Shown here: positions 16,871 through 19,476 of the stretch, piece after piece
Layout: each line of letters begins with the position of its first letter
Position numbering within the stretch: the first letter of the stretch is position 1
Source of the DNA: a phage
Reading direction: 5' to 3' (one strand)
Sequence record: OZ335955.1
DNA length: 47,047 nt
Position numbers and translations under genes: made by a program
The notes under the pieces: generated by a model
Databases searched by the model: none
Seen by the model: only the letters and a program-made list of their open reading frames with translations
What the model was told of the DNA's origin: nothing

Positions 16871-16896
16871 AAGCCCCATGAAGGGGCTTTGGTTTA
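16871..16896. terminator. rho-independent terminator (bidirectional)
   Basis: aagcccc-atgaa-ggggctt hairpin then tggttt; between convergent genes. Confidence 0.55.
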
Positions 16897-17079
16897 CTGA
16901 CGATCTGGGTCTGAATAGAAGTTAACTAACTTAATGAAATCCCGCTTTCCGCTATGGTTTAAATAAAAACCAGCAATTTCATTAAACGCTTCGTTCGCCG
17001 CTCTTACGCTGCAGCCCATGTTTAAAGCATCACGCGCAGCGATGGCAGCCAGCTTTGTTTTCTCTTTGATGTCCATCAA
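16894..17079 (-). CDS. hypothetical protein
   Basis: 61-aa ORF, last gene of minus-strand accessory operon. Confidence 0.4.
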   Translation of the reverse strand: MMDIKEKTKLAAIAARDALNMGCSVRAANEAFNEIAGFYLNHSGKRDFIKLVNFYSDPDRQ

Positions 17080-17615
17080 TCAATCCTCCTCGGCATAACA
17101 ACAATCTTTGCAGTCTCGCCAGATGGAGCGCTAAGACAGCAAGCTGCGGCATTTGTGTTTCCATTCAGTTCAAACTTAACGCTACTGAATTTAGGGTTAA
17201 ACAGCTTCGCCACTTTCTCAATATCAACAAGGTATCCAGCATTGAAGCCAATTTCCTCTGTTGGCAAGGACTGTTTCGGTATCACTCGATCAATATCAGG
17301 GAATCGACCATCAATCTCTTCGCAGATACCAGCACCAACCATAGCGCCAGCTTCATCATGATACGTTGCAATTTTCGACTTTGTATCAATGATGGCGTAC
17401 TCATAGCGTTTTGTTGGAGATTTGGTGACCTTGATAATCACATTTTCTGTCAGCTTATTGTCATGACTGCCACCAATGAATGCGCGATGACCGTCAGTTG
17501 ATGCGATGCGGCCATCAGGCATGAAGCAGATGCCGTTCAGGTAGTAGCGCACATCATTGCGCGCCTGAAATATTAATGCTGACTCAAGTAATAATTTGCT
17601 GATTTTTAGCTTCAT
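17076..17615 (-). CDS. truncated beta sliding clamp (DnaN domain II-III) homologue
   Basis: ORF-track 17076..17618 starts at GTG; ATG at 17615 with AAGGTG RBS; NDVRYYLNG, TDGHRAF, DGRFPDIDRVIPK, EIGFNAGYLVD and IVVMPRRI align with E. coli DnaN residues ~125-366. Confidence 0.65.
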   Translation of the reverse strand: MKLKISKLLLESALIFQARNDVRYYLNGICFMPDGRIASTDGHRAFIGGSHDNKLTENVIIKVTKSPTKRYEYAIIDTKSKIATYHDEAGAMVGAGICEEIDGRFPDIDRVIPKQSLPTEEIGFNAGYLVDIEKVAKLFNPKFSSVKFELNGNTNAAACCLSAPSGETAKIVVMPRRID

Positions 17616-17788
17616 CACTTCACCTTAATCATATGTTGTTTTGCAACCTTCAGGCATTCCTCAAAAATGCCGCCCTTCTTTGCGCTCTGATTGCGCTTGT
17701 AATACTGGATTGCCGCATCAACTGCCATCTGGTCGATGTCTGGCAGCTTGGCGCGAAGTTGTTTTTCTATGAATGATTCTGGAGACAT
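17615..17788 (-). CDS. small hypothetical protein (57 aa)
   Basis: GAGGAT RBS; not in ORF track. Confidence 0.3.
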   Translation of the reverse strand: MSPESFIEKQLRAKLPDIDQMAVDAAIQYYKRNQSAKKGGIFEECLKVAKQHMIKVK

Positions 17789-17973
17789 TTAATATCCTCA
17801 TCATCGAAGTGGCGTTCATTCCATCTTTCTGCCGCATCTTCGGCACCGTACTCGCTTCTCTTTTCAGTGCCACAATAACCGCATTCAACAACAAACCTGT
17901 CCTGCCAGTTATTATCAATGAATGCCGATGGTGTATTTCCGCAAAACGGGCATATTTTTAATTTAATCATCAC
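17767..17973 (-). CDS. Lar-family restriction-alleviation-like zinc-ribbon protein
   Basis: KICPFCGNTP...FVVECGYCG...ERWNERH; same pattern as the 11761..12009 product. Confidence 0.55.
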   Translation of the reverse strand: MMIKLKICPFCGNTPSAFIDNNWQDRFVVECGYCGTEKRSEYGAEDAAERWNERHFDDEDIKCLQNHS

Positions 17974-18779
17974 ATCTTCTCCAGAATTGCCATAACCTCG
18001 TGAATGTCAGCAACAGGAATCTGGATAAACTCCTCATCCTCTGCCACCACATGACCAGCAGGAAGAATCACATGGTCTGCTGGCTTCAATAACTCAATCA
18101 GACGGTCTACTGGCTTAATCTTTTTCGACTTCAGCACTTTTGCCGTGACTTTGTCTTTACCCTGCGCCTTCGCTTCTTCGACTGCCTCGTCGATAACTTT
18201 AATCGCATCTTCACCATGCTCACGCGTTACTGCTACGGCGTTTGCATAGCTGATTTGCCCGGCATTGATTCGCGCTTTAACTTCCGCTGGCACATCACCC
18301 AACGACAGGTGCATCTGCACATCAGATACTGAGCGGCCTACCTTCCTGGCGATCTCTTCGTTAGTCCAGCCAAAGCCTTTTAGTCGCGTGTAAGCCTTTG
18401 CGCGCTCAAACGGGTCAAGCTGCTTCCCCTGACTGGATGACACCATGAATGCAATTTTATCCGCCTCATCGCCAGTGAAATCCTTGCACTCAATACGAAC
18501 TATTGGTGCGCCGCGCTCAATGGCACGCAATGCGCCGAGATAGCGATGCTGACCATCAAGAATGCGGATTCCCTTCTCGTCAGGAATAACTGTTAATGCC
18601 GGTAGTGGCTGACCAGACTCCCAGCACTGCGCGAAATATTCCACATGTTGCTCATCTGCTTCACGGATGTTGTATCCCGGTTCCAGATAGATTTGCTCCA
18701 CTGGCACGAGATAGGTTTTGTTAACGGCAATGCCGTTGCGGGTTTCTTTGTCTGAATAGATTTTGCTGAGTGTTTTCAT
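17970..18779 (-). CDS. ParB-like nuclease domain protein
   Basis: IRILDGQHRYLGALRA motif typical of the ParB/Srx N-terminal domain. Confidence 0.6.
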   Translation of the reverse strand: MKTLSKIYSDKETRNGIAVNKTYLVPVEQIYLEPGYNIREADEQHVEYFAQCWESGQPLPALTVIPDEKGIRILDGQHRYLGALRAIERGAPIVRIECKDFTGDEADKIAFMVSSSQGKQLDPFERAKAYTRLKGFGWTNEEIARKVGRSVSDVQMHLSLGDVPAEVKARINAGQISYANAVAVTREHGEDAIKVIDEAVEEAKAQGKDKVTAKVLKSKKIKPVDRLIELLKPADHVILPAGHVVAEDEEFIQIPVADIHEVMAILEKM

Positions 18780-18782
18780 TGT

Positions 18783-19406
18783 TTATTCCTCATTACCAGA
18801 ATTAGCAATATCGTAAAACTGACCGTATGTTATCTGCTTAAAGTTATCAGGTATCGTTACCTGCCCATGACCTTCATCTTTTGTATTTGGCACTGCAAAA
18901 ATCAGGCAATCATCCTTTTGCGGGTGTTTACCGCCATAAGTAGACAGCATTGCAAAACCAAATCCGCGACCAGATAGCTCACCAATGCCGGTGCGTGCGA
19001 TGCCATAATGGTTAACAATGTAGTCCTTCCATTCTGGCAATAACTTTAATTTCTCGTTTGCCTCGCGCATCACTGCGTCCAGCTTTTTGTTGTATTCGCG
19101 ACCATCCTTTGTGTTTCCCTTTCCGCGAGCAATAACCACGCGCTGACCTTCCCAAAAGTCTTCGCGCTTTATTGTTACATGGCACGGAAATTCAAACTGC
19201 TTACTCCACACAAAACTCTCAAGTAAGCCACCGCCGACCGCGCCCCAGCTACGTGTCGCGGTGAAAGCGATAGCACCAACCTTTTTCATTGCATCACCGA
19301 GAATTTCATTGCGGCGCTTTTGAATGTCATCATATGCATCAATGACTTTCTTAACATCATCACCTTCAACCATGTAGTAATCATAATGCTTTGCGTTGCT
19401 GCTCAT
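18783..19406 (-). CDS. hypothetical protein
   Basis: ORF-track 18783..19424; internal ATG at 19406 has GAGGTGA RBS and is preferred; no recognised motif. Confidence 0.5.
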   Translation of the reverse strand: MSSNAKHYDYYMVEGDDVKKVIDAYDDIQKRRNEILGDAMKKVGAIAFTATRSWGAVGGGLLESFVWSKQFEFPCHVTIKREDFWEGQRVVIARGKGNTKDGREYNKKLDAVMREANEKLKLLPEWKDYIVNHYGIARTGIGELSGRGFGFAMLSTYGGKHPQKDDCLIFAVPNTKDEGHGQVTIPDNFKQITYGQFYDIANSGNEE

Positions 19407-19447
19407 TTTTATCACCTCTAACATTTATTGTTGTTTCTACATCACTA

Positions 19448-19476
19448 ACTATAAACACCTCATCAATCTACGTCAA
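19448..19476 (-). promoter_or_regulatory. sigma70-like promoter TTGACG-N17-TATAGT (conserved family)
   Basis: reverse strand reads TTGACGTAGATTGATGAGGTGTTTATAGT; divergent from plus-strand extended -10 TGcTAAAAT (19485..19493). Confidence 0.55.

Follow-up and report, generated by a model that had tools for sequence, protein, structure and literature searches.

The window analysed in this study, the whole 47,047-base stretch of sequence record OZ335955.1, is the near-complete genome of a virulent, Skatevirus-like siphovirus that infects Salmonella and Escherichia. Between its head genes and its neck and tail genes lies a leftward operon of six tightly packed minus-strand open reading frames (ORFs; 16894-19406, Table 1), as had been recognised in an earlier reading of the sequence alone (hereafter the sequence-only reading). 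In the order of transcription, the operon encodes a 207-amino-acid (aa) protein of the Eac/DUF5420 family, a ParB/KorB-like protein, a Lar/RalR-family protein, a 57-aa protein (p57), a clamp-like protein here called mini-beta, and a 60-aa protein. The gaps between the genes range from +3 to -22 nucleotides (nt), and a Shine-Dalgarno-like sequence stands before all six. The start of the 207-aa gene was placed at 19406, where a GAGGTG Shine-Dalgarno sequence lies 5' of the ATG and homologues share the same N-terminus. Since homologues of every one of the six ORFs exist and are under purifying selection, all six are real genes.

Table 1 Features of the operon, its control elements and its flanks (positions in the 47,047-base window)
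Feature	Position	Strand	Remarks
Eac/DUF5420-family gene	18783-19406	-	207 aa; promoter-proximal slot, variable cargo
ParB/KorB-like gene	17970-18779	-	269 aa; conserved operon anchor
Lar/RalR-family gene	17767-17973	-	67-68 aa; cargo, hypervariable slot after ParB
57-aa gene (p57, phrog_4439)	17615-17788	-	backbone partner of ParB
Mini-beta (clamp-like) gene	17076-17615	-	179 aa
60-aa gene	16894-17076	-	lineage-restricted; optional 3' cargo
Sigma70-type promoter	19476..19448	-	-35 TTGACG, 17-nt spacer, -10 TATAGT
TGAYGTAGA boxes at operon promoter	19467-19475 (over -35 hexamer), 19436-19444 (leader)	-	31 nt apart
TGAYGTAGA sites, whole window	1697-1783, 7921-7958, 11030-11063, 19436-19475, 24701, 37608, 40247, 44222-44247		
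Intrinsic terminator, hairpin and T-run	16890..16860 (hairpin 16890..16870)	-	found by terminator scan
Head decoration gene	15084-15551		upstream flank of operon
Major capsid-type gene	15554-16624		upstream flank of operon
Gene ending beside operon terminator	16667-16864	+	
Neck1/tail completion gene	21111-21509		one of four connector-type genes
Major tail protein gene	23056-23772		downstream flank

The locus is widespread among related phages. A search of public phage records with 16600-19700 gave 196 matches at 80-95% nucleotide identity, placing the locus in about 200 records; the top matches, at about 91-92%, were Escherichia phages ECO111 5-P and Bas79 and Salmonella phage KFSST1, and the Skatevirus classification is carried by KFS-SE2 and Seszw_1. 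For comparison, 79 loci around homologues of the ParB-like protein were taken from viral contigs, in addition to annotated records, and in the 68 loci having both flanks the same-strand ORFs between the capsid-side and membrane-protein-side genes were clustered and counted. The ParB-like gene was found in all 68 loci, the genes for p57 and mini-beta in 55 and 53, the Eac gene in 12, the 60-aa gene in 6 and the Lar gene in 1, which is the window itself. The order of the genes is unique in almost every locus. The slot after the ParB-like gene is hypervariable: it is either empty or occupied by a methyltransferase of the C5 cytosine type (PF00145) or the N6/N4 type (DPPY motif), by HNH endonucleases, by a winged-helix protein or by various small zinc ribbons. 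In the promoter-proximal slot, Eac alternates with a 103-aa protein and with an acidic 86-aa protein for which annotation pipelines use the label "anti-restriction". The operon therefore consists of a conserved backbone and exchangeable cargo.

With its own promoter and terminator and a content differing between close relatives, the operon bears the marks of a moron-type accessory locus. As such it is ordinary, its parts belonging to known families; the locus is already present and annotated in many public genomes, and what is new in the window copy is the combination of cassettes, with Lar in the slot after ParB. In a more distant relative whose ParB-like protein is 70% identical (locus L077), the ParB-p57 pair is relocated between tail fibre and recombination genes, and the position between capsid and neck genes is therefore uninformative on function. 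The sequence-only reading had taken the operon for a non-virion accessory island and had proposed to compare its presence and absence across related phages. The non-virion part of that view is borne out by homology, the operon does carry a Lar-family gene, and the cargo genes do come and go among the 68 loci; the ParB-like gene, however, is not part of the cargo, and the locus is a mosaic rather than a uniform island.

Evidence on which genes can be lost came from a genome-reduction study of skatevirus seszw (PMC9825161). Its 69 deposited mutant genomes were used, and 72 seszw/Skate-type records were compared. The ParB-like gene, gene 18 of seszw, is present with at least 99% identity in 70 of the 72 records, and its central part in all of them. 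Among close relatives, the ParB-like protein is 96-99% identical, equal to the capsid protein, and mini-beta is 74-94% identical. Mini-beta is kept in 47 of the 72 records, and mini-beta and p57 are deleted in about 25. The most reduced genome listed, that of seszw_290S (35,993 bp), is without the clamp-like, 57-aa and membrane-protein ("lipoprotein") genes and still carries the ParB-like gene and the gene upstream of it. Judging from the deposited mutant genomes, mini-beta and p57 would thus be dispensable in seszw; Eac, Lar and the 60-aa gene (p61) do not occur in seszw. Because it is found in 68 of 68 loci, is conserved at the level of the capsid and is kept in all seszw/Skate-type records, the ParB-like gene is probably not dispensable cargo and appears to be needed by the virulent phage. 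In one mutant, seszw_180S (L088, MZ375330.1; 1846-2610), an in-frame deletion of 45 nt takes 15 aa (LGDVPAEVKARISAG) out of the helix-turn-helix region of the ParB-like protein and is accompanied by one substitution. If, as we infer, the gene was targeted, this deletion looks like a CRISPR escape in a gene whose loss the phage does not tolerate.

The promoter of the operon is conserved along with its backbone. TTGACG-17-TATAGT is the sole sigma70-like site within 16000-20500, where shuffled sequence gives 6.6, and both hexamers are invariant in 67 of the 68 related loci, with the 3' part of the spacer varying at up to 7 positions, a pattern expected of a working promoter. An extended 13-nt -35 box, TTGACGTAGATTG, occurs in 10 copies in the window (at most 2 mismatches) versus 1.2 expected, and the 9-mer TGAYGTAGA in 13 copies, mostly paired, versus 0.5 expected; together, the two motifs are enriched 8- to 26-fold. 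Regions carrying them head non-structural units on either strand, including the recombination/exonuclease, helicase and primase units and units of small genes, and the operon therefore belongs to a phage-wide non-structural promoter class. Both TGAYGTAGA boxes of the operon promoter are kept at a spacing of 30-31 nt in 63 of the 68 loci, and Bas79 has 12 copies, almost all at positions matching those of the window. These patterns suggest that TGAYGTAGA may act as an operator or as a promoter element in a regulon that extends over the whole phage.

Over the whole window, near-consensus sigma70 sites number 12 on the minus strand versus 3 on the plus strand, and the structural genes have no promoters of the TGAYGTAGA/TTGACGTAGATTG class. 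As the rightward structural genes are without strong host-type promoters, a phage factor is presumably needed for late expression. The type of its promoter suggests that the operon is probably expressed early or middle by host RNA polymerase. In the same intergenic region as the operon promoter, TGCTAAAAT at 19485-19493 on the plus strand is a possible extended -10 element, from which the 39-aa and membrane-protein genes may be transcribed rightward, in divergence from the operon. At the other end, a hairpin with a T-run follows the last gene, so that both the promoter and the terminator proposed in the sequence-only reading are in place. This terminator is probably bidirectional, the plus-strand gene beside it also ending there. 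Most relatives do not share its sequence, since operons differ at the 3' end. Leftward cassettes were seen to end in GC-rich hairpins at 9579-9605, 16868-16894 and 23778-23804; the three are nearly identical (AAAAGCCCC...GGGGCTTT) and look like a reused bidirectional terminator.

The constant member of the backbone is a ParB-family protein with an altered N-terminal domain. Pfam searches of the 269-aa protein found HTH_ParB (PF17762; 44.3 bits, cut-off 22.6) and KorB (PF08535; 25.7 bits, cut-off 22.3), and in phmmer residues 40-203 align to Thermus Spo0J (1vz0, 7e-14), with weaker alignments to structures of ParB, Noc and KorB. The ParBc domain (PF02195) gave no match at E <= 0.1, TIGR00180 scored 37.8 versus a cut-off of 58.45, and the Noc model was also far under its cut-off. 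In the N-terminal ParB/Srx-like domain, Box II reads DGQHR(YLG) instead of GERR(xRA), with DGHHR in distant members, and Box III reads SSSQG(K), ENLQR being lost; both changes are conserved across the phage family. No nuclease family was found for this protein in Pfam, PHROG and NCBIfam searches, and a match to a DGQHR domain (E = 0.007, 16 bits versus a cut-off of 58.85) was set aside as weak and not evidence of a nuclease. The gene had been read as a ParB-like nuclease, a label of which the ParB/KorB helix-turn-helix part is supported and the nuclease part is not.

The features that define partition systems were also searched for. The ParA-binding motif LG(R/K)GL is absent from the N-terminus, and the annotation of Bas79, whose genome is collinear, lists no ParA gene. 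A palindrome search of the window for a parS-like site gave no recurring palindrome and only four unrelated perfect 16-mers (14817-14832, 16140-16155, 22348-22363 and 32142-32157; about 0.7 expected by simple odds), which share no consensus and of which two lie within coding regions. A 15-bp palindrome in the 5' end of the ParB-like gene (18723-18737) was considered as a parS site and rejected, being within chance expectation. The window protein shares with KorB, ParB and Noc a ParB/Srx-like domain at the N-terminus and, behind it, a helix-turn-helix of the ParB type, and like RK2 KorB it is encoded on a mobile element. Unlike them, it has altered Boxes II and III, is without a recognisable C-terminal dimerisation domain, ParA-binding motif, ParA partner (none annotated in Bas79) or repeated palindromic site, and is the product of a virulent-phage gene. 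We take it not to be a partition protein, and it is probably not a canonical CTPase.

According to a recent survey (PMC12704722), proteins of the ParB fold bind CTP, ATP or GTP, and fusions with methyltransferases are frequent among those of phages. C5 methyltransferase genes are found close to the ParB-like gene in relatives of the window phage, in locus L083 and in Pseudomonas phage TC7. In TC7, which is unrelated to the window phage, a single operon (L094, 1410-6229) holds a 32%-identical ParB-like homologue, a mini-beta and a C5 cytosine methyltransferase. L083 is a 43-kb phage contig otherwise dissimilar to the window; within its stretch 5106-8234, a 45%-identical ParB-like gene has DUF2303 to one side and, to the other, a ParE-like small protein, DUF4060 and a C5 methyltransferase.

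Mini-beta is related to the E. coli sliding clamp, beta, over two stretches. By phmmer and a family profile, its residues 8-117 align to beta 136-250 (domain II and the II-III linker) and its residues 120-179 to the final beta-alpha-beta-beta-beta unit of domain III (beta 314-366), up to a C-terminus that reads VVMPRRI in mini-beta versus VVMPMRL in E. coli beta. The matches have E-values of 4e-12 (phmmer) and 4e-15 (family profile), with 39% identity and an identical DVRYYLNG stretch; TIGR00663 scores 30.6 versus a cut-off of 137.65. Missing are the whole of domain I and, from domain III, about 63 residues (roughly beta 251-313) that include the I272/L273 dimer interface. These two parts carry the two halves of that interface, and mini-beta is therefore unable to form the head-to-tail dimeric ring. 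Whereas E. coli beta (PDB 2pol/1mmi; beta-delta 1jqj/1jql) is a dimeric ring of three-domain subunits of about 366 aa, mini-beta is half that size and homologous over domain II, the linker and the C-terminal strands.

The part of the clamp that is kept includes the pocket for clamp-binding motifs, which in beta holds Pol III alpha, delta, Hda, Pol II/IV/V and MutS/L and is an antibiotic target. Of the 24 residues that line this pocket in published beta-peptide structures, 19 are identical to E. coli beta, versus 39% identity overall (Fisher p = 1.8e-5). They are, in beta numbering, R152, Y153, Y154, L155, T172, G174, H175, R176, P242, R246, V247, N320, Y323, S346, V360, V361, M362, P363 and R365. 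An alignment of 45 diverse mini-betas, which share 27-48% identity with the window protein, likewise has its highest conservation at the pocket positions (mean 0.68 versus 0.38 elsewhere; Mann-Whitney p = 1.6e-6), with R24, Y26, L27, T41, G43, H44, P107, Y129, M175, P176 and R178 of mini-beta each conserved in 87-98% of the members. Binding of clamp-binding motifs by mini-beta is a plausible proposal on these grounds, though a tentative one that we place slightly short of an even chance.

An exhaustive search gave 181 mini-beta representatives of 50%-identity clusters at E <= 1e-10, nearly all of them 170-215 aa long and aligned end to end, and tblastn located the family in 288 phage records with hosts that include Salmonella, Escherichia, Vibrio, Klebsiella, Burkholderia, Proteus, Pseudomonas and Acinetobacter. 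Judged by these homologues, mini-beta is a member of an established family of about 180 aa and not a decaying fragment: the DnaN homology noted earlier holds, and the term "fragment" does not. A literature search on truncated phage clamps found nothing relevant. The label "RusA-like Holliday junction resolvase" (phrog_3007; RefSeq, for example NC_054641.1 and NC_054642.1) appears to be a propagated annotation error, since the family has no RusA match in Pfam, NCBIfam or the PDB and all its significant matches are to DnaN.

Mini-beta neighbourhoods in other phages were sampled from annotated phage records, where the family usually occurs in replication or DNA-modification modules. Its neighbours are DNA polymerase I and a helicase in Acinetobacter phage 4316, an RNase H-like gene and a C5 methyltransferase in Burkholderia phage SBP9, two methylases and a primase in E. 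coli phage IME_EC2, and Erf, RepL and a primase in Vibrio phages. In a Dhillonvirus (Escherichia phage rolling, L093, 2683-4019), mini-beta and Nmad5 form a two-gene reverse cassette in the head module. Dhillonvirus gp40 was considered as a ParB-like protein and rejected, as gp40 is Nmad5; mutations in Nmad5 let Dhillonvirus escape the Tmn defence system (PMC11846954). The Dhillonvirus cassette and that of Proteus phage 2207-N35 resemble the window operon in being reverse cassettes with mini-beta inside head or tail gene blocks, and differ from it in the partners, with Nmad5 instead of a ParB-like gene and neither Lar nor Eac.

Among the cargo, the 207-aa protein had the length and start first assigned to it but is not unrecognised, as had been stated. 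It matches phrog_2260 (5e-59) and is 65-72% identical, over 98-100% of its length, to Eac/DUF5420 proteins at NCBI from Salmonella, Enterobacter, Citrobacter, Klebsiella and Yersinia; the Pfam DUF5420 model (PF17457) scores 13.5, below its gathering threshold of 26. In three Salmonella assemblies, a 72%-identical Eac ends a P22/lambda-type early-left operon (Ral, cIII, Kil and others) directly before xis and int, a stretch that is the classical ea region. Eac is cargo that the window phage has in common with temperate phages. The window copy and the P22-like Eac are of the same length with full-length identity, and both are accessory genes of an early, or in the window probably early, operon, but the window copy lies in a virulent siphovirus, directly behind a sigma70 promoter. 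A literature search for Eac/DUF5420 returned only unrelated uses of "EAC".

The Lar-like protein passes the cut-offs of its family, as expected from the sequence-only reading (PF14354, 40.2 bits, cut-off 28.6; TIGR03655, 44.3, cut-off 39.6). With RalR/Lar of the Rac prophage in E. coli it shares 34% identity (BLASTP E = 5e-8), a similar size, the four-cysteine zinc ribbon, CPFC(G)...CGYC, and the ERWN motif. Unlike RalR, which is also annotated as a type I toxin DNase, it is encoded in the operon of a lytic phage, and with the RalR equivalog model it scores 19, far under the cut-off of 113. It was not found in this slot in any of the 67 other loci, and its nearest relatives among phages occur in large myoviruses of Pectobacterium and Cronobacter, at about 50% identity. 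Lar is imported cargo, the sole gene of the operon with a named anti-restriction family and a candidate for restriction alleviation or for a RalR-like DNase. Of the two small proteins, p57 matches phrog_4439 (2e-22), has no recognisable motif and stays beside ParB even in L077, where the pair has moved; the idea that it carries a clamp-binding motif was rejected, because its QLRAKLP is not conserved and reads NLREKLP in relatives. The 60-aa protein has no family match in Pfam, PHROG or NCBIfam, and its 22 homologue clusters are 70-98% identical, those on long contigs being on contigs of about 46-48 kb.

The operon is one among several leftward cassettes in the structural arm of the phage. The collinear relative Bas79 has a rightward packaging, head, neck and tail arm that is broken by several short leftward cassettes and is followed by a leftward recombination and replication arm, and the GC-skew profile of the window alternates in a manner matching these arms and cassettes. 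Downstream of the operon, the genes of two membrane proteins and four genes of connector type are followed by an HNH gene, accompanied by two tRNAs, and by the gene of the major tail protein. No DNA polymerase domain was found in the replication-region ORFs of the window or in the annotation of Bas79, and the phage, being without a recognisable DNA polymerase, is therefore dependent on host Pol III. The two tRNA genes, tRNA-Arg(TCT) and tRNA-Ser(GCT), are on the minus strand at 22450-22619, between the neck genes and the major tail gene and beside the HNH endonuclease; KFSST1 has tRNA-Arg and tRNA-Met at the matching position. Positions 10531-10643 are 77-83% identical to 22099-22211, the latter within the HNH endonuclease gene 21884-22363, which suggests a diverged second HNH copy near 10.5 kb.

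Building on the observed gene structure, promoter conservation, mosaicism, family assignments and pocket conservation, we propose an overall picture that we consider moderately probable: an operon read by host RNA polymerase that combines a ParB-like regulator, a mini-beta with a clamp pocket, and imported cargo. It would be transcribed as a single unit, probably early, between the late head and neck modules, and its products would take no part in virion assembly. A first layer, the conserved backbone, would comprise the ParB/KorB-like protein, the 57-aa protein and mini-beta, and a second layer would comprise exchangeable cargo in three slots, with Eac behind the promoter, Lar after ParB and the 60-aa gene at the 3' end. 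The ParB-like protein may be a sequence-specific DNA-binding or regulatory factor of phage development, KorB- or Noc-like with a diverged nucleotide pocket. Mini-beta may be a monomeric, non-ring receptor for the clamp-binding motifs of host (or phage) proteins, and would capture, divert or recruit host proteins that carry such motifs. Lar and Eac would be horizontally acquired accessory genes.

Several points weigh against this picture or parts of it. No repeated palindromic parS-like site was found in the window for the ParB-like protein, and TGAYGTAGA is non-palindromic and not tied to that protein by evidence; that the ParB-like protein acts at the TGAYGTAGA boxes is rather unlikely. The retention of ParB in the seszw mutants could partly reflect the gene not being targeted, although the in-frame deletion in seszw_180S argues against a mere lack of targeting. 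The pocket residues are also the most conserved part of DnaN, and some of their conservation may be structural; an AF2 model of mini-beta built from 25 close homologues had a pLDDT of 47 and was unusable, and the predicted fold and pocket integrity rest on sequence. The early timing of the operon is likewise deduced from its promoter type, and the DNA targets, binding partners and any anti-restriction effect are, as the timing is, predictions of the model. Finally, a mini-beta that lures clients away from the clamp could be harmful to a phage dependent on host Pol III.

The foremost alternative, and one we think improbable, is that the whole operon is an anti-defence island in which every gene, including the ParB-like and clamp-like ones, neutralises host restriction or other immunity. 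It would account for the Lar-family protein, the methyltransferases and "anti-restriction"-labelled acidic 86-aa protein of relatives and the hypervariable gene content, and it finds parallels in phage ParB-fold/methyltransferase fusions proposed to act in anti-defence (PMC12704722) and in the link of Nmad5, the Dhillonvirus neighbour of mini-beta, to Tmn sensing (PMC11846954). Yet the ParB-like gene is universal, conserved at the level of the capsid and kept in 72 of 72 seszw/Skate-type records on a single laboratory host, mini-beta is usually found in replication modules, and, the Lar family aside, no gene of the operon matches a characterised anti-defence protein. Moreover, the BASEL skateviruses (Bas77-81), which carry methyltransferases rather than this Lar, are reported to show marked sensitivity to restriction-modification systems as well as to the Old system (PMC11990801), so that an effective anti-restriction role is not established for the operon. 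The anti-defence role suggested in the sequence-only reading thus gains from the methyltransferases in the same slot of relatives and loses from this sensitivity and from the replication and DNA-modification setting of the clamp-like family; what remains is candidate anti-restriction cargo by homology, Lar in the window and methyltransferases in relatives.

Equally improbable in our estimate is a backbone that serves replication or genome maintenance, with the ParB-like protein marking phage DNA (at an origin, or for plasmid-like carriage) and mini-beta acting as a processivity or loading factor of the replisome. The ParB-p57 pair adjoins recombination and replication genes in L077, mini-beta adjoins DNA polymerase I, helicase or primase genes in Acinetobacter, Burkholderia, E. 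coli (IME_EC2) and Vibrio phages, and the promoter class is common to replication units, all of which would fit such a module. A ParB-like protein without a ParA-binding motif, in phages that are described as lytic and, as in Bas79, have no annotated ParA gene, does not, nor does a mini-beta that is deletable in seszw and, without domain I and the ring interface, cannot encircle DNA like the beta dimer.

The two remaining alternatives are very improbable. A clamp-like gene that is a functionless, decaying remnant of a captured host dnaN, in an operon that is largely genetic baggage, would agree with the 39% identity to E. coli beta, with identical stretches such as DVRYYLNG and with dispensability in seszw, but is already contradicted by family-wide conservation, with 181 nearly always full-length representatives of one architecture across many phage genera, intact reading frames and conservation concentrated on the pocket residues. 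A role of the operon genes in head or neck assembly is suggested by their position between capsid and connector genes only, against which stand family assignments that are all to DNA binding or DNA metabolism, the opposite strand and own promoter, the different placement of ParB-p57 in L077, the deletion of mini-beta and p57 in viable mutants and a gene content that varies between near-identical virions.

Within the preferred picture of regulator, clamp pocket and cargo, a more specific and speculative possibility, to which we give little credence at present, is that the backbone is an undescribed host-replisome capture device, in which a DNA-bound, non-CTPase ParB-like protein, perhaps at TGAYGTAGA, and a monomeric mini-beta would recruit or sequester host proteins with clamp motifs; the clients, as doubtful as the device, would be Pol III alpha or delta, Hda, MutS/L or translesion polymerases. 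If true, such a device would benefit a phage without its own polymerase, and the mini-beta module may be reused across phage lineages beside methyltransferases and polymerases.

In summary, the operon of this skatevirus joins a conserved backbone to exchangeable cargo. For the engineering of skateviruses for biocontrol, removable cargo is now separated from a backbone gene that should be left in place, and the ParB-like protein, a member of the ParB-CTPase fold with degenerate boxes, adds to the mapping of the roles of this fold beyond chromosome segregation. The lead most worth attention is mini-beta, as a family and for its repeated occurrence with genes of the ParB-like kind or for DNA modification. 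Mini-beta represents a large, uncharacterised phage family, spread over many genera, that has discarded the ring-forming parts of the clamp and kept its client pocket; if it does bind clamp-binding motifs, it would be a compact reagent for studying the clamp pocket and a new phage tool for manipulating the host replisome and repair.

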